Below, piece by piece: positions 13 through 50,485 of a DNA stretch of 64,000 nucleotides. The first letter of the stretch is position 1; every line of letters starts with the position of its first letter. Origin of the DNA: Eledone cirrhosa (taxonomy: Eukaryota); contig OZ024745.1 in the NCBI GenBank assembly GCA_964016885.1, positions 51,398,001 to 51,462,000 of the forward strand, written 5' to 3'. The notes beneath the pieces are model-generated. The model was not told the DNA's origin. It ran no database searches and worked only from the letters and a program-made list of their open reading frames with translations. The translations under genes were made by a program, and so were the position numbers.

Positions 13-678
13 GTGACATCCATCTCCCCCACAAAGAAAACCAACACGGAAACATTACCAGCAAACATACCTCTTCCCTCCAACACTGAAGATAACCCAA
101 CGAATTCGGAGGAAGAAACGGAGTCCTTCAGACAGATTAAAAGGAAAAAAAGAAAACATGTGCAAAACACACAAGGACAAACAACCCCCACCCAAATCGC
201 AACACAATCCAACAAAACAGAAAACACCCCTCCAGCAACAAACAAAACCAAACCTGCCCCTCCCCTCTTCGAAACACTCACACCATCGGAACAAAAGACA
301 TTACACTATACTTACATCAACAGAAACAATAATAAATTAAATGAACTCATATACAATAATCCTTCGGTACAAACCGAAGGTGTAAACTTTGCTTCGTCAG
401 AAAACCACCCACATTTAAAACTAATAAAAATCCCAATGAACCTCTACCAAAAACTAAAAAAGGATTTTAAGGAGGACGTAGGACCACCCTCTGTCAAACC
501 CATAAACCGCGTCCTACTAAAAAGCTTTCCCCCTCCCCTTCCCCTCCCCAACACAACTCCAAACACCCCAACCCCACCACACACTGACGACCCCACACCA
601 CCACAAGACACCCCTTCACCCAACACCCCCGACACCATGGAAGTCGTGCAACCCGAACCCCGGGAAGCGGAAAGGTAG
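13..678 (+). CDS. ORF1p C-terminal part (Pro/Thr-rich, basic KRKKRK stretch)
   Basis: Open frame ending 33 nt before ORF2. It aligns to the downstream part of ORF1 in copy 2, which carries a CCHC-like knuckle. Confidence 0.7.
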   Translation: MTSISPTKKTNTETLPANIPLPSNTEDNPTNSEEETESFRQIKRKKRKHVQNTQGQTTPTQIATQSNKTENTPPATNKTKPAPPLFETLTPSEQKTLHYTYINRNNNKLNELIYNNPSVQTEGVNFASSENHPHLKLIKIPMNLYQKLKKDFKEDVGPPSVKPINRVLLKSFPPPLPLPNTTPNTPTPPHTDDPTPPQDTPSPNTPDTMEVVQPEPREAER

Positions 679-711
679 GTCTCTACACTCTCTTTTGGCT
701 CTGCCGCCCAC

Positions 712-3700
712 ATGGATGTGTTAAGAGTAGGATGTTTGAATGCACGTGGCCGGGGCTCAACTTGGAAGCAAGCAAAGCTTCTAAATGACCTCAGGTCATG
801 TAGTATAAATGTAATGGTTATCTGTGAGACTCGAATCAGCGTCATGCGGCAGCTGGCCCCCACCTTCGATGACTTTGAGGTGCATGCATCTCTCTGTCAA
901 CCTGGAGGTGGGGGTGGGGTTGTCGTACTGCTGCAAAAACACCTGGGTCTTGCCGTACAGGTTGTGCACTCGGACCCGGAGGGTCGTTTGTTGGTGCTAG
1001 ACGTTGGCAGTAGTGAAAGTGCGGCCTTGAGACTGGTCGCCGTCTACTCCCCTTTCGGAGCTGAACGGCCCGACTTCTTCCAACGTTTGGAGACTTTTCT
1101 GGGAACGTCGCGTTCCCTGCTTCTAGCGGGGGATTGGAATTACATCCTGGATGCACGTTGGGACTATGCAGGAGCATGTCCTAATAGAGGGGGGTGTAAC
1201 AGCCTCAAGGGGTTACTCGACCGTTTTAACTTGGTCGATAGATATCGACTAGATTTTCCAACTGTGCCTACCTGGACTTGGAGAAACCACAGTGGTCAAT
1301 CTAGATCGTACTTAGATAGATTCTTAGTTAGAAGTAAGGATAGGGACATATTAAGCTGTCCAGAAATGCGCACGGTTGGCTACACGGATCACAAATTAGT
1401 GACCTGCGTGGTCAATCTCGAGAAAACACATAGACAGGGTCCCGGTTACTGGAAACTTAATTTGTCTTTACCGGCAAAAGAGACTTACAGAAACCGGATT
1501 AGCAGATTAGTTAAGGAGAGGTTGACGGGTGCAATCGTCAACAACCGATGGTGGGCATCTCTCAAAAGAGAGATTAGAACAGAATCAATAAGTTATAGCA
1601 AGATGTTAGCTGCCGATAGGAATAGAAACGAGAAAGAATTAACAGGTAAATTAGAAGAGGCAATCAAGAGCGAAGATGTGGCCAGAGTGCTGGCATTGAG
1701 GACGGCCTTGAACCAGTTTTTCGATGCAAAGCATGAAGGCTGCGTCATTCGAAGTAAAATACGTGCTCTAGGTAATGAGGGGGCCAAAGCCGTTGGATGG
1801 GCCCGCGTGACAGAAGCTAAGAGTGGAAATCGATCCACCATCCGGTCGTTGCAAGACGAAGATGGACGAGTGATCCGGGAGCCTAAGCAGATGTGCGAGG
1901 CCTTTCAAAAGCACTTTGCCCGATTGTTCGGGGGAGGCGAGGGTCCGGGCCGGGGCGTGGATTTCGGTCCATACCTCGACGGCCTGCCGCGTCTCTCGAA
2001 CAAAGAGGCAGAGTCCTGCGAGGGACCAATCTCGGCTGATGAGATCGGAGATGCGCTGAGCCAATGCAGCAGACGCAAATCTCCAGGTCTCGATGGTATA
2101 CCTTACGAAATTTATTTAGCAATACCGGTCTTCTTCTCCGAACTCCTCGAAGCGGTCTACTGCAATTGGCAGCAGAACGGGAGAATTCCTTGTTCTGTAG
2201 CCAAGGGCGTAGTCACGCTGGTGAGGAAGGACGGAAACAAGGGGGATAGTATAAATAATTTTCGGCCCATAACCCTGCTAAACACAGAGTTAAAGATTTT
2301 GGCCAAGGTGTTAGCAAAGAGGTTGGCGCTTGTCGTGGGTGGCCTGGTGGGAGATGCGCAGACATGTGCTATCCCATCCAGGTCCATTCACGATAACCTC
2401 CACCTCATGCGATACATCATAGAGAGGGTTGGCAACAAACCCGGCTTCGGTGGGGCCCTGATCAACTTGGATCAGTCTAAGGCCTTCGATAGGGTCGACC
2501 ATGGTTACCTGGATGCGGTGCTAGCGGCGGCTGGGTTCGGTCCTGTTTTCAGAGGCTGGATCACTGCCCTACATAGCAACCACATCTGTTCTAGGATCAA
2601 GGTGAACGGCTACCTTTCGAAGCCGTTCGAAATCACACGATCCATTCGACAGGGGTGCCCTCTCTCCACCCTTCTGTACGTATTGACTCTTGAGCCTTTA
2701 CTGAGGAAGTTGGAGTTGTTGCAGGGTATCCCCCTGGAACCAGGATTGAGCAAAGCGGTGTCGGCCTACGCCGATGACGTAACAGTAATGGTATCAACCG
2801 ATTCGGAGATCGAGGCGATCGGTACCTTACTGGAGGAGTACGAAAGGTTGTCAGGAGCGAAACTGAACCGGAAAAAATCCATCGGGCTGCAACTCGGAAC
2901 GTGGAGAGGCAAACCGATGCCTCCTGACGGTGTCGTCGGACACTGGACGGAGGGCCCGGTAAAGTTGCTTGGGGTCTGGTTTGGACCGGACCTCCAGGTG
3001 GAAAAGAACTGGAACGAGGTTACGAACAAGGTGTTTGCACTAACCCAGAAATGGGCCAAGTGTAAGCTGTCCCTAAAAGGCCGGGCGGAGGTGGCGAACA
3101 TTTACATAGCGTCCGTCACTTACTACCGCCTGACTGTCGTGCCTTGCCCTAAGGAAACACTCACCACCATGGAACGCATGCTCTTCCAATTTCTTTGGAA
3201 GAAGCGTCCTCCTATGGTGAGAAGATCCATCTGCTGCCAACAACCTTCGAAAGGAGGGCTGGGGATGCCGTGGTTGATGATGCGTAGCCACGCATTAAGG
3301 CTACGGCACCTACAGGTATTCCTCACTGGTCAACCGGTGTGGGCTCCGTTCGTGAAACGAGCCTTTCCGAGACTCGTCTCACTCACCGAGCTACAGCAAA
3401 GATCCGGAAAGATCCGCAAAGATCCGGAAAACTGGGAGACTGGCACACTGAGTGTGCTCAGGCGCTCAGGGCTCTCTGGCAAGCGGGCCAGGCCATCGGT
3501 GGAGAATCCACCTCATCATTCTATAGAGGGCTGGTGGCTAGCAGGGGCGATGACACCCTTGGAGAGTCGCTGGACATGGAAGAAGACGAACTGGCCAGCC
3601 TGTTCGGTAGGACTTTCGGCCCAGGACCAATGGACAACTTCCAGAAGTCACTGGCCTGGCAGTGCTACCGAGGGGCTCTACCCGTTCGAGAGAGGCTCTA

Positions 3701-4157
3701 CAGACACGGGCGCCCGGGCAGGGATCCCTCAAAAAAGATTTGCCCTAGATGCGTGCGTCACGAAGAAACCGTAGCGCACGCATTGGTGCAATGTCCGGGC
3801 GTGGCTGATCTGTGGGGCTACGCCGAACAACTGCTGTCGCGGGTGGCGCCGATTAAATTGACCGCCGAGTCCGTGATGACAATCAAACTGCCTCCCCTCT
3901 TCACAAAGGAAGCAAAGGCGGTTTTTCTGTGCGTAATAGCCATGTTGAAAGAGGTTGTTTGGTGGACACGATTGAAAGGTCTGAGGTCAGGCAACTTCCT
4001 CCCTGGCCATAGTCTGGTCTACTTCTTCCGATATCACTTCGGAAGAAGGATAAGAATGGAGAGAGAGGTGCTTGGCCACAGGCAGTTTTATGAAAGGTGG
4101 GTGATAGTGGCGAGAATGGCTCGTGTAAATGGGCCTTCTCTGTATACCATCCTGTAG
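712..4157 (+). pseudogene. ORF2p (APE endonuclease + reverse transcriptase + C-terminal CCHC) with one frameshift near 3400
   Basis: EN motifs LNARG, ICET, GDWN, SYLDRF, TDH. RT motifs PGLDG, FRPITLLN, LDQSKAFDRV, RQGCPLS, YADD. The C-terminus CPRC..ETVAHALVQC lies in another frame (ORF 3339-4157). Confidence 0.92.
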
Positions 4158-4371
4158 GTAAAGAAGTAAAGGAGAGGGGAGCACCTTCTCCATGTGCTCC
4201 CCGGGCAAAGGATTGCACACTTTTTCGGGGGTGTGTGCAACCCCCATCACGTCCCCTCCCTTTTGAGGTTATTTTCGATTATTTTCATGTTACACCCTTT
4301 TTACTCGATTATATGTAAACTCCCCCTTTGTATTTGTCCCTTCTTTTTATGCCTTTATGGTAAATAAAGAA

Positions 4372-4507
<136 letters not shown>

Positions 4508-22789: not shown

Positions 22790-22855
<66 letters not shown>

Positions 22856-23283
22856 TTCATAGGGATATATGTATATATTTAGACATAGTCACAGATACAT
22901 ATATGAGTTTGGCTACCTTCAACGGTGTGGCTCAATGAAGAATTAATTAAGCAAATAATTATTAATCAGAGCTATATATAAAATTGCAAGGTTGAAGAAC
23001 TATTAGATAAAATATATACAGTCTTTCCTCTCCATAGTCCGTAGAAATCAACCACATAAATAATCATTTAAAACGAGGCTATAAGTTTAAAATGTAACTA
23101 TGAAGAAATAATAGACAAATGATACAGACTATCTTCCGCGAGAGACAGCCAGATAAAATCTATCTAGTCATTCCTTTTAACTTGTAGAAAAACGACTAGA
23201 CAAATTATCAACCAAAGTTAGAGTTAGGTCTAAAATAGAAGTTGGAAGAAAAAATGCATATAAACTTTACCAACATTCCTCTA

Positions 23284-23369
23284 GACTCGACTGCCGGCAG
23301 TTTCGTTCCTTTTTAGCAGATATTTCCGATCCTGGGTTTATCCACGAGGCTTGAAACTTATCAAGAGAC
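23284..23369 (-). ncRNA. Hammerhead ribozyme with U3-A8 variant core
   Basis: gucuc UUGAUAA guuuc...ggaac GAAA cugccggcag (perfect palindrome) UC gaguc. Confidence 0.68.
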
Positions 23370-23821
23370 ACCTTATGTCTGGACTAAAATTTCTACCGTG
23401 ATCCCGCTAGAAATGAATTTAAAAATGGCTAAGAATTATCATGTGGTTGATTTCTAAGGATTAGGGAGAGGAAAGACTGTATATATTTTATCTAATAGTT
23501 CTTCAACTATGCAATTTTATATATAGCTCTGATTAATAATTATTTGCTTAATTAATTCTTCATTGAGCCACACCGTGAAAGGTAGCCACACTCATATATG
23601 TATCTGTGACTATGTCTAAATATATACATATATCCCTATGAATTTAATATATACTCCCATAAGGTAGAGTAGCAGTTTAGGCAATATATGGCTGCGCATT
23701 CTAGCAACCAGCCTACTCGCCGCCTGGCAACCATCTACCTCGACCACTAGCCACATGATAATCCTTAGCTATTTTTAAATTCATTTCTGGCGGGGATCAC
23801 AGTAGAAATATTAGTCCAGAC

Positions 23822-23906
23822 GTCTCTTGATAAGTTCCAAGCCTCGTGGATAAACCCAGGATCAGAATATCCGCTAAAATGGAACGAAACTGCCGACAGT
23901 CGACAC
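23822..23906 (+). ncRNA. Hammerhead ribozyme with U3-A8 variant core
   Basis: gucuc UUGAUAA guucca...uggaac GAAA cug-ccga-cag UC gacac. Confidence 0.68.
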
Positions 23907-24223
23907 TAGAGGAATTTTGGGTAAAGTTTATATGCATATAACTTTACCAAAAGTTCCATTTTTTCTTCTAACTTCTATTTTAGACCTAACTCCGTTTAGT
24001 TGATTATTTGTCTAGTCATTTTCTACAAGTTAAAAGGAATGACTAGATAGATTTTATCTGGCTGTCCCTCGCGGAAGATAGGAGGTGATCATTTGTCTAT
24101 TATTTCTTCACGGTTACATTTTAAACTTATAGCCTCGTTTAAATGATTATTTATGTGGTTGATTTCTACGGACTAGGGAGAGAAAGACTGTATATATTTC
24201 ATCCAATAGTTCTTCAAACTTGC

Positions 24224-24259
<36 letters not shown>

Positions 24260-33258: not shown

Positions 33259-36200
33259 CGTCTGGGATGCCACTTGCACCGACACTTTCTGCAGCTGCAA
33301 CCTTGTGCAGTCTGTGACTGATTTGCGAAGAGAAGCTGCCCTGAAAACTGTGATTTTCAGGACAATCTGAAACAAAACACGAAAACCGACTCAACTTTCA
33401 CAAGGCGAAATTGAGTTGGCTTTAAAAACTGCCTTAAAAGACATTGCTTTTATTCAGAAGGGTAGACTCTACGGGAGTTTATCCATTCTAATGAAAGACC
33501 AATTGACGGCACAGAAATATTCTGTGTCGCCAATTGTGTCACCGCTGTTCCCCTTTCTCCCCACTTACATGGGGAAAAGATCAAAGAAAATAAAAATCCA
33601 AAGTATCACACCAAATATTGATATTTGGTGGGTACTATGTGGAATTTTAAACCACGAAACAGACTATATAATATCGGTAGGTAAGTCCTCCGGCGACCTG
33701 TTCAGCGGAACTAGCCTGGAAGTTCTGGTACAAATGACACCAGATCGAATAGCTAGGATCCCGGAACGTGTGTTGCTGGGTGGGCTTATATACATAAACA
33801 TTTCAGTCGAGGGTAGGCGGCCCTCATGTCAGACATACAATCACTGCTCAAGCAGGGGTCACCTGAGAATTTCCTGTCCTCCGCTAACTAGCAAAAAAAA
33901 GGCACTACTGCCAACACCTTCAACACCAGCACAACAATCACCACCATCACCGCCACAGCAGCAACAACATGAAAAAATAGTGACAACAAAATAAACGACA
34001 AACACAGTCCCACCCAACCCCACCCCATCTAAAACAACTCCAGAAACACCCACACACATAACAGCTCCCCAAAATGTACCCCTCCCCAACAACACGGATA
34101 AGTCCTCATCATCGTCACCCAGTGACGATGAGGGAGAGCCTTTCCGACCAGTAAAAAGAAAAAAGAAAAGACATAACACAAACAAAAATGTAACAAACAC
34201 ACAAACACCAACACAAGCGACGCAAATAGCACAAACAAAAACACCCCCTCCTGAAAACAAAACACCTACTAGAAAACGTAAACACACACAAGAACCACAG
34301 ACAAAAAGCAACCCAACACAACAAAAATATTTCACCTACATAAATACTAACAATAACACTTTAACAGACACCATATATAAAAACCCTTCGGTGGCTACCG
34401 AAGGGAAAACTTTTACACACTCTTCGGAGAATCCTAATCTTAAAATGATTAGGACCTCCATAAACAGTTAAAAGAAAAATGTCCTAACGACGTAGGTAAC
34501 CCCTGCGTCAAACCCTACAATCGAGTCCTGTTAAAATGTTTCCCCACCCCCACCCCCATCCCACCAGACACCCCCTCCCCACCAACATCTCTGTCCCCAC
34601 CCCTCCAGCGACCACCACCCCACCAAACAACCCCTCCAACATCCCCATGGAAATTGTGCAGCCTGGTCCCCAGGAGACCATTCTTCATTTAACTTTTCAG
34701 CACCAACATGGCCAATATAAGAGTTGGATGTGTGAATGTACGCGGCATGGGGATGCCCTGGAAACAGGCAAACTCTTAAAAGACCTCAGGTCGCACAGTA
34801 TGGATGTAGTAGCCATTTGCGAGTCCAGGATCCACAGCGAGCGACAACTGGCCCCCATCTTCGACGACTTTGAGATCTATGCATCTCTCTGTCAGCCGAG
34901 AGGTGGGGTGGGCTTGCCGTTTTGCTGCGGAAACACCTGGACCTCGTAACACAGACGGTACATCTGGACCCGGAGGGTCGACTGGTGGTCCTAGTTGTTG
35001 ACTGTAGTGAAGGTGGAGCCTTCAGGCTAGTGGCCGCATATGCCCCATCCGGGACACCACGGCCAGACTTCTTCAAACATCTAGAGACTTTTCTGGGAAC
35101 GCCCGCTCCCTGTTGTTAGTGGGGCACTGGAATGGAATCCTAGATGCATGTTGGAACTATGTGGGAGCATGTCCCGATAGGTTGTAACAGCCTCAAACAG
35201 TTACTCGGCCGATTTGACATGGCCGATAGATATCGACTAGATTTTCCGACTGTGCCACTGTGGACGTGGACTAACGTAGCGGAACATCTAGATCGTACCT
35301 AGATAGGGTTCTAGTTAGAAAGAAGGATAGGGACATGTTAAGCTGTCCACAAATGTTCATGGTTGCCCATCCGGATCACAAATTACTGACCTGCTTAGTC
35401 GACCTTGACAAAACCCATAGAGAGGGACCGGCTACTGGAAGCTGAACTTGTCGTTACCGACATGCAAAGCCTACAGTAGACGGATTAGCACTTTAGTTAA
35501 ACAGCACTTGACAGGGGGGCCATTGTCAAAAACAGGTGGTACTCTCTCAAGAGGGCATTTAGATTAGACTCGATAGGTTTTAGTAAAGAATTAGTGTTAG
35601 ATAGAAATAAGACCGGAAAGGAACTGGTAGATAAAGTAGAAGAGGCACTTAGGAGTGGCAACGTAGCCAGCGTGCTAGCGACGAGAACGGCCTTGGACCA
35701 GTTCTTCGACGCAAAGCATGAAGGCTGCGTTGTCAGAAGCAAAATACGTGCTCTGGTAAACGAGGGAGCCAAAGCTGTTAGCCCGAGTGACGGAGGCGAA
35801 AAGTGGCAACAAATCCACGATTCGGTCTTTGAAGGACCAAGACGGACGCGTGGTACGTGAGCCGAAGCAAAAGTGCGCGGCCTTTCAGCGACACTTTGAT
35901 CAACTGCTCGGGAGGGCGGCGCGCCGGGAGGGGCTATGGATTTCGGTTCATACCTCGACGGCCTACCGCGACTCTCGGACAGCGAGGCGAATTTCTGCGA
36001 AACCCGATTTCGGCCGCTTAGATAGGGGACGCGCTGAGCCAATGTGGCAAACTCCAGGTCTCGACGGTCTACACATCGAAATTTACGTAGCAATGCCGGA
36101 CTTGTTCTCCGGTATCCTGGAAGCGGTCTACTGCAACTGAAGAATTCCCTGTTCTGTGACCAAGGGCGTAATCACGTTAGTCAGAAAGGACGAGAACAAG

Positions 36201-38294
36201 GGGGATGACAACTTCCGGCTCATAACTCTGCTCAACACAGAGTTACAGATTTTGGCCAAGGTGTTGGCAAAGAGACTGGCGCTTGTCGTCGAAAACCTGG
36301 TCGGAGAAGCGCAGTCCCGACCAGGTCCATACACGACCACCTCCACCTCATGCGATACATCACAGAGTGGGTAGGGTGTAAACCCGGCTTCGGTGGGGGC
36401 ACTGATCAACTTGGATCAGTCTAAGGCTTTCGATAGGGTTGACCATCGTTACCTGGATGCGGTGTTCGAGGCGGCAGGCTTCGGACCTATGTGCAGGGGC
36501 TGGATTGCTGCAATGCACAGCAACAATATCTGCTCAAGGGTCAAGGTGAACGGCTACCTTGGAGCCGTTCCATATCACGCGATCCATTCGACAGGGATGC
36601 CCTCTCTCCTCCCTTCTGTACGTACTGACTCTCGAGCCACAACTGCGGAAGTTGGAGCTATTGCAGGGTATCCCTTTGGAACCGGGACTGCGAAAAGCGG
36701 CGTATGCGTACGCCGACGACGTGACAGTAATGGTGTCGAGCACCTCGCAAATCGGGGAGATCGGCACGTTACTGGAGAAATACTAAAGGTTCACAGGAGC
36801 GAAGCTGAACCGGGACAAATCCGTCGGTTTGCAACTCGGAACGTGGAAAGGCAAACCGATGCCTTCCGATGACGTCGTCGGACGCTGGACGGAAGGATCG
36901 GTAAAACTGCTAGGGTTCTGGTTTGGTCCGGACCTCCAGGTGGAGAAGAACTGGGCCGAGAAGTGGGCCGAGTGCAAACTATCCTTGAAAGGTCGAGCGG
37001 AGGTGGCGAACACTTTTATAGCGTCCGTCATCTACTACCGCTTGACCGTCGTGCCTTGTCCAGCCCAAACGCTCACCAAAATGGAGCGCGTGCTCTTCCA
37101 ATTCCTTTGGAAGAAACGGGTTCCTTTGGTGAGAAGATCCATCTGCTGCCAACACCCTTCAAACGGAGGGCTGGGGATGCCGTGGCTGACGATGCGCAAA
37201 CACGTGCTCAGGCTGCGGCACCTCCACGTATTCTTCACCAGACAACCGGTGTGGGCCCCGTTCGTGAGGCGAGCATGCCCACAACTCGTCTCGCTGTATG
37301 AGCTGCAGTCCTGGGTCAAGCAAAGACAGAGGAAAATGGGCGACTGGCACATCGAATGTGCTCAAGCGCTCACAGTCCTCTGGCAAACGGACCCGGCGAT
37401 CAGTGGAGACTCCACTTCGACATTCTATAGAGGGTTGGTCCGTAGCAAGTGCGACGACACGCTCGGAGAAATTCTAGGCGTAGAGGAGGACAAACTGGCC
37501 AGTCTGTTCGGTAGGACCTTCCGCCCGGGACCAATGGACAAGTTCCAAAAGTCCCTGGCCTGGCAGTACTACCGAGGAGCTCTACCAGTTCGAGAGAAGC
37601 TCTACAGACACGAGCGCCCGGGTAGAGACCCTTCGAAAAAGACCTGTCCGAGATGCGTGCGCGATGAGGAAACCGTCGCGCACGCATTTGTACACTGCCC
37701 GCGCGTTACCAAACCTGTGGGGATATGTAAAACGACTATTGTCGCGGGTAGGACCAATCCAGTTGACCACCGAGTCCATTGTCATGATCAAACCGCCACC
37801 CTCCTTCAAAAACGAGGGAGAGGCGGTTTTCCTATGTGTTATGGCTATGGTGAAAGAGGTCATATGGTGGACGAGGTTAAAAGGGCTGAGGTCACGCACC
37901 TTTCTCTCCGGCGAACAACTGATTCGTTTTTTCAAATATCATTTTGGAAGAAGATTCAGGATGGAGAGAGAGGTGCTGTACCCCAGCACATTTTATAAAA
38001 GGTGGGTGAATGTGGCAAAGATGGTCCGAGTGGTTGGGCCTTCTCTCTATATAAGCCTGGAGGTTGAGGAAAAAGAGGAAGAGAGGAAGGGAGCACTCAT
38101 TCTTGCTGCTCCTAAAGATGAGGGTTGTACATTTTTTTTGGGTGTGTACAACCCCTGTGTAACGCCTCCCCCCCTATTGGGGATATAAATTGTTATTTGT
38201 TATTTTATTAATAGTTTTATTTTCATATACCTGTACGTAAACTCCCCATTTGTATTTGTCCCCTTATTTTGTGCCCTTGTGGCTAATAAAGAAA
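33259..38294 (+). mobile_element. L1/Tx1-clade LINE, copy 2, apparently full length but decayed
   Basis: ORF1 (33416 onward) with C..C..RGHLRISC knuckle; ORF2 fragments homologous to copy 1 (LDQSKAFDRV, YADD, CPRC..H..C) with many frameshifts; same 3' UTR and AATAAAGAA; (ATCT)n at the 5' flank. Confidence 0.9.
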
Positions 38295-38317
38295 TTTAAC
38301 TATCTATATATATATAT

Positions 38318-38388
<71 letters not shown>

Positions 38389-38876: not shown

Positions 38877-39953
38877 ACCAGATAGAAAAATGCGTACAGC
38901 AAAAAAAGTAATATTGTTGGAATATAAACCTTTAAAAATACAGGACAAGAAACTAAAATAAAATTTTAAAAGAATAGGACAAGAAACTAAGATAAAACTT
39001 TAAAAGAATAGGACAAGAAACTAAGATAAAACTTTAAAGAATTGGACAAGAAAAAAAAAAATTTACAATAATATTAGTGGCAACATTTTTTTATTCGTTT
39101 CCTGTGCTATGCCCCAGTATCTTCTTGATTAGTGCATAATAATTGTCATGCTCTCATTGTGCGTTGCCCCTGAGCGGTTGGTTCTGGTTGGGGTTGGTTG
39201 GCTGAGCAGTTCTGCTCCGTCAGAATGACCATTGCAAGAAGAATTGGCCGATGCAGCTGCAGGTCTCCTCCAAGAATGCACTTCTGGTCCCGCAACACCA
39301 GACGAATATGGAGAAGACGACCGGGACAAGATGTCGACTCTGACCACCGACTACGGCACCTCCTTCAACCACCGGTCCTCCCTCCCGTCATCCCTCCAGT
39401 CCTCCTGCTCCCCCTTCCTGTACCAGAAAGCTGTGGCACGCATTCATCTGGACTGCCGGACTTGAACTCAAGGACAAGGTGCAAGGAGAAGATGAACGGG
39501 TTGGTCAAGATCAAGGATGAGCGGGACGACAAGACCGTCCGCTGCTGCTCAAGATCTGTGCTCATGGGCCCATGGGTCCATTCATATTATGCATGACACA
39601 TGAGGCGTGTCGCCGAATGATGAACTAGGGTATGGTTATGGCCCAATTGGTGTTCAAACCAGGATCCCCCGGTCTGACGACGACCTCTGAATGTGGAACC
39701 CAGAGCCTATGAATGTGGAACTCGATTTTTTACCAATAAAAATTTTGCCACTAATATTATTGTAAAATTTTTTATTTCTTGTCCAATTCTTTAAAGTTTT
39801 ATCTTAGTTTCTTGTCCTATTCTTTTAAAGTTTTATTTTAGTTTCTTGTCCTATTCTTTTAAAATTTTATTTTAGTTTCTTGTCCTGTATTTTTAAAGGT
39901 TTATATTCCAACAATATTACTTTTTTTTTGCTGTACGCATTTTTCTATCTGGT
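38877..39953. mobile_element. Foldback-like non-autonomous DNA element: ~220-bp TIRs with ~33-bp internal subrepeats around a GC-rich core
   Basis: 38877-39095 is the reverse complement of 39734-39953; ggacaagaaa occurs x4 in each arm. Confidence 0.8.
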
Positions 39954-49697: not shown

Positions 49698-50485
49698 ACA
49701 CCCAACTCATATGGTGATTAGGCTTTGAAGGGGCGGCAGAAATGTATATCCATTCAACGTTTCTACAAATTTAAGGATTATATATATTTATATATATATA
49801 TATGTACATATATATATATATATTTGTGTGTGTGTGCTTGCGAGACGTGTGGACAGCGTGTGAAGAATTCATTTCTTGTGTTTAGGCAATCACTATTGCA
49901 TAATCTCTTTAGAATATTTATTCGTTCATCAATACATAGTCCACACGACGGATTTCCCCTTCCGTATGGCTTGGACTTAGTGATGACTTTCCATTGAATG
50001 GAGTAGTCTATACTTGAGTCCTTGAGGGACCATACGTGGCTCGCGAAATTCGTGGATGAACGTCTGTCCGGGTACCTAAAGGTCGACTGGTGGTTCAGGG
50101 AACGTTCCCTAAATCGGCCCTCCGCCATGCCCACATAGGATTTGACCTCCTGTGGTTGGTTTGGTCGGTTGGAAGTGACCACAGCTTCATAAATTACAGC
50201 GGGTGTGTTGCATTACTTTTGAAGGGGGCAAGCTTCGGGCGTACGGCAAGAGCACCCTGGTGGGGTGTTGCTCCTAGGGCTGCTGGTGATGTTGGCCTTC
50301 ATGTTCTTAGCGCAGGTGTATCCTAGTTTTACTTTGTGTCGGTTAAAGATGGAGCGGTATTTATGACCTATGGGAAAGTGTCTATCTAAGAGGGCTAGAA
50401 ATTTTTTGCCAGGGTGCTCTTGCCGTAAGCCCGAAGCTTGGACTGAGTGCGCTACCACTACGGATATTACCTTCCAATGTTCTAC

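Follow-up and report, generated by a model that had tools for sequence, protein, structure and literature searches.

Two inverted hammerhead-like motifs lie between positions 23284 and 23906 of a 64,000-nucleotide stretch of the Eledone cirrhosa genome (assembly GCA_964016885.1, contig OZ024745.1, forward-strand positions 51,398,001 to 51,462,000; hereafter the window). Both read UUGAUAA where the hammerhead core is expected to read CUGANGA, so that core positions 3 and 8 form a U3-A8 pair in place of C3-G8. Is this local decay or the core of a ribozyme family, and what path led that family to its core pair? The U3-A8 feature flagged in the initial annotation is real but known; what is new is a ladder of subfamilies running from U3-A8 through the wobble U3·G8 to C3-G8. 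The motifs are damaged, predicted type I hammerheads in the two arms of one repeat of ~680 bp, likely retrozyme-type and Penelope-copied, in whose family the core pair probably passed from U-A to U·G to C-G.

A generic hammerhead scan of both window strands returned two matches, namely the two motifs, here called copies 1 and 2 (Table 1). The initial annotation had described UUGAUAA in both inverted copies with all parts in register, and this was confirmed. The 3-8 Watson-Crick pair is U3-A8 in both, and the rest of the core (U4 G5 A6, A9, G12 A13 A14, A15.1-U16.1, and H17) is intact in both, as it is in nearly all family copies found by DNA similarity. Some details of the helices had to be amended. 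Stem II is GUUCC/GGAAC, as described, in copy 2 but GUUUC/GGAAC, with one U-G wobble, in copy 1, and the palindrome CUGCCGGCAG is present and perfect in copy 1 but replaced by CUGCCGACAG in copy 2. Both stem I 3' strands, GAGUC and GACAC, indeed differ from GAGAC at one base. Copy 1 has a U-U mismatch in stem I; copy 2 has a C-C mismatch there and one mismatch in the stem III palindrome. The large stem II loop, put at about 40 nt, measures 42 and 43 nt but is structured, with a hairpin and a predicted pseudoknot strand. The leader strand that would pair with it is damaged in copy 1 and deleted in copy 2. Both copies are decayed and, with stem I mismatched and the pseudoknot strand either damaged or lost in each, probably inactive; their folding z-scores as single strands (-0.45 and 0.52) are unremarkable. 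The copies lie on opposite strands and therefore offer no double-hammerhead pairing within one transcript. They are the two arms of a single insertion, with 30 mismatches in 499 aligned bases, and so are not independent witnesses.

These arms are circular permutations of one noncoding unit of ~680 bp that contains no frame. They stand head to head and diverge, with 6 nt in common at the junction (23441-23446). Each 3' end abuts (TA)n, that of the left arm at the fixed end farther from the cut site (about +435) and that of the right arm at the nearer one, which lies at about +304 in the family and at +325 in the window copy owing to a small insertion. The family's 3' ends are concentrated at two sites ~130 bp apart, with 114 and 43 alignment ends. 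The 5' ends are scattered, with no enrichment of breaks at the predicted cut site (3 of ~200 alignment starts within 23890-23909). An inverted 5'-truncated arm, fixed 3' ends with a tail, and a microsatellite target, the signature of Penelope-type insertion, are all present. Arms run past the cut site and some are longer than one unit. Ribozymes on the same strand are spaced 675, 685, and 693 bp apart at three of the six loci having such pairs, and, whether a copy is U3-A8, U3·G8, or C3-G8, what lies upstream of its ribozyme continues, wrapping round, into the downstream part of the unit itself. A noncoding monomer with one type I hammerhead and head-to-tail repeats (675 to 693 bp at 3 loci) is a trait of retrozymes without long terminal repeats (non-LTR retrozymes), whereas their monomer size of 170 to 400 nt is exceeded by the unit of about 680 bp. 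Judged by its sequence, the family is likely a long-unit relative of retrozymes with Penelope-type ends. Some U3-A8 relatives are without one internal duplicate, and for these a short unit of about 540 bp would be expected. Strict family patterns gave 236, 260, 134, and 413 matches in the 3.0-Gb genome, and there are therefore at least several hundred family copies; the patterns with 260 and 236 matches had only 2 and 0 in the reversed control, so the motifs are not due to chance.

Table 1. Coordinates of the two-armed insertion and its ribozyme motifs within the window
Feature	Position	Strand	Remarks
(TA)n target, left flank	22792..22851	none	
Insertion, left arm	22845..23446	-	602 bp of circularly permuted unit
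Hammerhead copy 1	23284..23369	-	Type I, U3-A8; core 23364-23358
Copy 1, C17 and stem I 3' strand	C17 23289; strand 23288-23284	-	
Copy 1, predicted cut	Between 23289 and 23288	-	
Copy 1, stem III	23290-23301	-	12-nt palindrome, perfect
Copy 1, pseudoknot leader strand (predicted)	23371..23375	-	Damaged: UAAGG; subfamily has CGAGG
Insertion, right arm	23441..24236	+	Slightly over one unit; 23441-23525 recurs at 24153-24236
Hammerhead copy 2	23822..23906	+	U3-A8; core UUGAUAA 23827-23833
Copy 2, stem I	23822-23826 / 3' strand 23902-23906	+	
Copy 2, stem II	23834-23838/23881-23885	+	
Copy 2, loop-2 strand of predicted leader/loop-2 pseudoknot	23842..23846	+	CCUCG
Hairpin within loop 2	23846..23874	+	GUGGAUA / UAUCCGC
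Copy 2, GAAA, stem III, and C17	GAAA 23886-23889; stem III 23889-23900; C17 23901	+	
Copy 2, predicted cut	Between 23901 and 23902	+	
Internal ~140-bp duplication	23955..24203	+	Two diverged copies, about 23955-24059 and 24099-24203
(TA)n target, right flank	24227..24256	none	

Homologues answer the first part of the question. In 130 collected copies, a sample biased by its stem III pattern, the core pair is U3-A8 in 107, U3·G8 in 15, C3-G8 and C3·A8 in 1 each, and something else in 6. A hand count of the first 100 of the 236 matches to a pattern that leaves positions 3, 7, and 8 free, and that excludes more distant C3-G8 subfamilies, gave 70 U3-A8, 15 C3-G8, 12 U3·G8, 1 C3·A8, and 2 others. 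With U3-A8 in 107/130 and 70/100 copies, most of the family does not carry CUGAUGA, and the variant core is a family trait rather than local decay. UUGAUAA is, however, not fixed as had been proposed, U3·G8 and C3-G8 subfamilies being part of the same lineage; the wobble U3·G8 characterizes one subfamily. Nor is U3-A8 in this genome the rare swap that it was taken for. A genome-wide short-loop pattern, which excludes the present ~680-bp family, matched 25,894 U3-A8 motifs (control, 1,427) and 6,259 C3-G8 motifs (control, 125), about four to one, against 370 U3·G8 (control, 376) and 671 C3·A8 (control, 390). The pair has also been published: natural examples are described (Perreault 2011, PMC3088659), Penelope-like elements of Schistosoma carry about 1,300 such motifs (Cervera and De la Pena 2014, PMC4209133), and covarying pairs are reported to be active in vitro in other ribozymes (PMC3088659). 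Most of the first 100 of the 25,894 matches belong to a very abundant short U3-A8 family with core UUGAAAA and a stem III palindrome ACCGGU, in which close inverted pairs are frequent (L192-L210). Tandem hammerhead arrays were also seen, at G000:C1:6519941-6521556 and C1:14044535-14051131, with periods of 316 bp (U3-A8) and 469 bp (C3-G8).

Descriptors confined to CUGANGA would miss most hammerhead-like motifs in this genome, and the initial annotation had blamed the variant core for standard searches missing this family. The core is not the sole cause. In the window, Rfam gave no hammerhead and only low-complexity microRNA matches among the matches listed (150 of 188, E<=5), and seven related loci gave nothing at the gathering score, including three with a canonical core (L141, L147, and L069). 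The miss reflects the long loop 2, and an Rfam match is not a defining biochemical feature.

The second part of the question, the path of the core pair, was addressed with a tree of 159 of the 188 extracted copies, 29 short ones having been dropped and 13 further matches left unparsed. With the core columns removed, it runs from U3-A8 subfamilies to a U3·G8 grade and then to C3-G8 subfamilies; a small short-unit clade in it is an artefact of aligned (TA)n tails, and those rows were dropped from later trees. The window copies are placed in the U3-A8 subfamily adjoining the U3·G8 grade, which by sequence makes them members of the last U3-A8 subfamily before the A8-to-G step. The same order was reproduced from 284 nonribozyme columns downstream, at least 16 nt beyond the cut site (151 rows), and an approximately unbiased (AU) test on a 51-row subsample rejected U3·G8 as a side clade (p 0.037). 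Within the grade, G8 occurs in 16 of 18 copies (17 loci) against a background post-insertion A>G rate of 0.018 to 0.027 per site, so the U3·G8 grade was itself amplified; U3·G8 also occurs in a few copies elsewhere on the ladder, apparently through single mutations that came later. The expectation that single mutants of this pair would be dead is thus contradicted, at least at the level of spread. The nine other core positions are constant in all eight subfamily consensuses, a constancy partly forced by the search patterns, versus 140 of 268 downstream positions. The reading of a single C3-G8 copy as an isolated reversion was rejected, since that placement arose in a tree built with nonhomologous tails and without the near C3-G8 subfamilies. 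Along the C3-G8 part of the ladder (L141-L190), GUC gives way to GUA as the cut triplet and a bulge appears in stem III, which in the sister family is then shortened to an 8-nt palindrome.

The direction of these changes can be read from the internal duplication. Identity between the duplicates declines steadily along the ladder, from 0.84 at the far U3-A8 end by way of 0.69 for the U3·G8 grade to 0.655 at the C3-G8 end (rho of -0.88 over 139 copies), and in a 72-row tree with few columns either duplicate taken by itself gives the ladder order. U3-A8 is thus likely ancestral in this lineage, and C3-G8 would be a return to the standard pair. Divergence between arms was too noisy to order the subfamilies.

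The proposed structure was scored on 90 aligned copies, of the 130 then collected, and shows the type I layout of three helices round a core, with stem I open-ended. Pairing occupies 89.0% of cells, compared with 35 to 42% for slid partners, and reaches 87.9% in stem I, 90.0% in stem II, and 97.2% in stem III. Two-sided changes were counted in 142 cells, versus 55 in shuffles. Stem II occurs in the paired versions GUUCC/GGAAC, GCUCG/CGAGC, and GCUUG/CAAGC, and the 12-nt palindrome of stem III has four main versions. In the 130 copies, the outer stem III pair is G-C in 64, A-U in 55, G-U in 8, and A-C in 2, and the inner pair is U-A in 74, C-G in 36, U-G in 13, unpaired in 6, and a gap in 1. 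In a monomer this inner pair would close a 2-nt loop, uncomfortable in a hairpin, yet it covaries. The computed energies of perfect palindromes are -15 to -23 kcal/mol for the duplex and 0 to -1.4 for the hairpin. Because the inner pair covaries and the duplex is modeled as far more stable, the data point to a ribozyme that would act as a dimer through palindromic stem III, as has already been proposed for Penelope hammerheads (PMC4209133; PMC6765202). A loop-2 strand, CCUCR, is complementary to YGAGG directly upstream of stem I, giving a predicted 5-bp pseudoknot whose end pair, in 75 copies, is U-A in 42, C-G in 23, U-G in 6, and unpaired in 4; the corresponding strands of the sister family are GAGU/ACUC. 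Pseudoknots at this place are known in hammerheads, and one between stems I and II is predicted in about 40% of hammerhead representatives (Perreault 2011, PMC3088659). A competing family-wide helix of 9 bp joins upstream UUUUAGUCC (window 23808-23819) to the strand after the cut site (23902-23918). It excludes stem I, has 86.7% of its cells paired, and showed no covariation (80/500 shuffles equally high); it could be an off-state of a circular RNA, if such an RNA is made.

From these observations a route of propagation can be proposed. The template would be a multimeric or circular RNA, since arms read through the cut site, where 5' breaks show no enrichment, and some of them are longer than one unit. 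A Penelope-type reverse transcriptase (RT)/GIY-YIG protein, acting in trans, would nick (TA)n, and reverse transcription would begin at two internal sites and so leave two arms and a tail of ~130 nt. The ribozyme would cut after GUC, mainly as a dimer via stem III and perhaps assisted by the leader/loop-2 pseudoknot, and cleavage would release monomers. A coding element carrying the unit was not found, and we therefore infer a helper. tblastn with RT and endonuclease probes from the fetched loci gave unrelated neighbours only, the unit occurs at 30 endonuclease loci only as inserted fragments, and at the loci examined no frame is continuous with it of the kind that autonomous Penelope-like elements have (RT and GIY-YIG between pseudo-long terminal repeats [pLTRs]). 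The RT at locus L061 was rejected as the unit's own coding frame; it belongs to an unrelated Penelope-like element, with an RT and GIY-YIG frame recognized by weak Pfam hits, that is interrupted by a family copy (L061:5839-9998). Coding Penelope-like elements of this genome carry a minimal, hammerhead-like UUGANAA motif 560 to 1030 bp downstream of the endonuclease match at 11 of 30 loci (L211-L240), to which L232, on the corrected strand, would add a twelfth. In the window itself, a fragment at 49778-50212 on the minus strand resembles a Penelope-type GIY-YIG endonuclease by eye and had no Pfam hit.

Several observations weigh against this account. The search beside 190 fetched loci and among the 30 endonuclease loci turned up no protein-coding element with the unit. 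For a type III hammerhead, a published pairwise scan reports rescue of this pair by the G3-C8 swap alone, U3-A8 and single 3-8 changes scoring low (PMC9901934). The hammerhead fold was the minimum-energy fold in none of 14 copies folded, lying 2 to 12 kcal/mol higher in a comparison made without pseudoknot or dimer; it is the minimum-energy fold for a shorter stretch of L084. The covariation counts are of copies, not events, the tree implying few independent two-sided changes per helix, and pairs changed on both sides were no better than shuffles (277/500). Template switching can perfect palindromes without selection. The pseudoknot end pair overlaps CpG sites, and pseudoknot length with a copy's own partner (4.2) is only modestly above that across families (3.5). 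Many copies were collected by patterns requiring part of the core, which inflates core conservation, and the subfamily bins were drawn once the tree was seen. Across the steps of interest, terminal branches are flat in length and give no age gradient (rho 0.00), so that direction rests on the internal duplication.

Other histories could produce a similar set of copies. One is that the unit is the pLTR of a protein-coding Penelope-like element whose full-length copies were not found, rather than an independent retrozyme. Penelope-like elements as a standard have inverted 5'-truncated arms, a tail, and (TA)n targets (bioRxiv 2021.04.23.441226), and the evidence covers a sample of copies and one endonuclease type; the wrapping of upstream sequence into the unit's own downstream part, in all three core classes, and the lack of any open reading frame continuous with the unit make this unlikely. 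Alternatively, recombination or gene conversion between U3-A8 and C3-G8 families that coexisted could have produced the ladder as a cline, with the U3·G8 copies as mosaics. Reverse transcriptases do switch templates, and the flanking subfamilies are alike in post-insertion divergence (median terminal branch, 0.034 to 0.041) and so may have coexisted. We nevertheless regard a cline as quite improbable: of the diagnostic columns to the right of position 8, 15 match the U3-A8 neighbour, 6 match the C3-G8 neighbour, and 4 are mixed, and these are interleaved rather than in blocks, which argues against a single crossover, and the order is recovered both from columns at least 16 nt beyond the cut site and from each internal duplicate separately. 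The ladder could also have been climbed the other way, with C3-G8 ancestral and U3-A8 derived through U3·G8. C3-G8 is the near-universal state, and a midpoint or sister-family root suggests this polarity, which is very doubtful given that duplicate rooting contradicts it, that terminal branches are longest at the far U3-A8 end (0.065, a value that sparse sampling can inflate) and shortest in the C3-G8 sister family (0.019), and that the single-duplicate short-unit relatives are U3-A8.

How the wobble step was survived is a closer matter. Amplification of the U3·G8 grade means either that the wobble was buffered by its context or that cleavage was unnecessary in each round of spread. One possibility, short of probable, is that the master lineage crossed a fitness valley: the U3·G8 hammerhead, from which hardly any activity would be expected, kept enough of it to spread because the pseudoknot and the 12-bp dimer helix buffered the core. 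It is also possible, if short of probable, that element and ladder are as described here and the ribozyme is dispensable for insertion, so that U3·G8 was an inactive, drifting passenger, uninformative on wobble tolerance. That possibility gains from the anole Penelope element, for which hammerhead mutants are reported to insert undiminished in vitro with unprocessed RNA as the main substrate (PMC11167929), from the low activity of single 3-8 changes (PMC9901934), and from arms that cross a cut site at which 5' breaks are not enriched. It loses from the constancy of the nine other core positions, partly forced as that is, and from a lineage that went via the wobble, not via a C·A mismatch, and that was back at a Watson-Crick pair only a short way along the ladder. 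We judge that the U3·G8 form retained activity at a reduced level, or else required cleavage only now and then, for long enough to leave at least 17 insertions. Reduced but real activity is only slightly favoured over dispensable cleavage, because the wobble route was taken, the rest of the core kept, and the pair quickly restored.

The U3-A8 core itself is ordinary, and the value of the locus lies in the series to which it leads. Two questions are at stake, namely how one compensatory pair replaces another in a catalytic core and whether the hammerhead is needed at all by Penelope-type elements. Natural subfamilies that are neighbours on the ladder differ at position 3 or 8, each leaving dated copies. 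Cleavage by U3·G8 would mean that context buffers a core pair regarded as intolerant; a lack of cleavage would mean that the element spread while its ribozyme was dead and regained the pair afterwards, which would narrow the roles open to the ribozyme. Should the valley-crossing explanation be true, the series would be a natural, ordered compensatory path within a catalytic centre in which every step is a real sequence.

Other repeats occur in the window. Two long interspersed nuclear element (LINE) copies, at 475-4396 and 34489-38318, are 74.5% alike and have endonuclease and reverse transcriptase motifs, the former with an open frame of 1031 codons. At 38877-39953, 216-bp inverted arms (97% alike) made of 34-bp subrepeats enclose a GC-rich middle of about 650 bp, which looks like a fold-back element that has captured a sequence.

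Among the closest known systems are the minimal hammerheads of the Cercyon Penelope-like elements of Schistosoma mansoni (PMC4209133), which are likewise type I with a U3-A8 core, a short stem I, and a palindromic stem III region, and which occur as opposite-strand pairs 100 to 700 bp apart and as dispersed truncated copies. The family differs from Cercyon, as described there, in its 12-nt palindromic stem III, in a 42-nt loop 2 with a hairpin and a predicted pseudoknot strand, in lacking an unpaired base between A9 and G10.1, and in being attached to no coding element; the text of that paper describes neither a U3·G8 subfamily nor a series. With metazoan non-LTR retrozymes (Cervera and de la Pena 2020, PMC7229834; Li, Clavereau and Pollet 2026, bioRxiv 10.64898/2026.07.22.740005) it shares a noncoding monomer that is AT-rich and bears a single type I hammerhead, copies in partial tandem, and a link to Penelope-like elements. 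It departs from those reports in a monomer of about 680 bp instead of 170 to 400 nt, in its core variant, and in mostly two-armed inverted insertions of about one unit in place of tandem arrays; the likeness is one of DNA, abundant monomeric RNA in linear and circular form being a retrozyme trait that is here only proposed. Poseidon of the green anole has two internal reverse-transcription starts in vitro that leave a tail (Frangieh 2024, PMC11167929), and the two starts, the tail, the AT-rich targets, and a hammerhead upstream of the start sites are all matched here, whereas Poseidon is reported to encode protein and to leave a tail of 30 to 40 bp, and the present unit is noncoding with ends about 130 bp apart. 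A wobble-intermediate series was not found in the open-access literature that was searched, and other papers or supplements could already show similar architectures or U3·G8 variants. The U3-A8 covariation itself is that of natural hammerhead variants (Perreault 2011, PMC3088659), which, in the text available, stand as isolated examples with neither a linking lineage nor a wobble intermediate, both of which the present family likely has.
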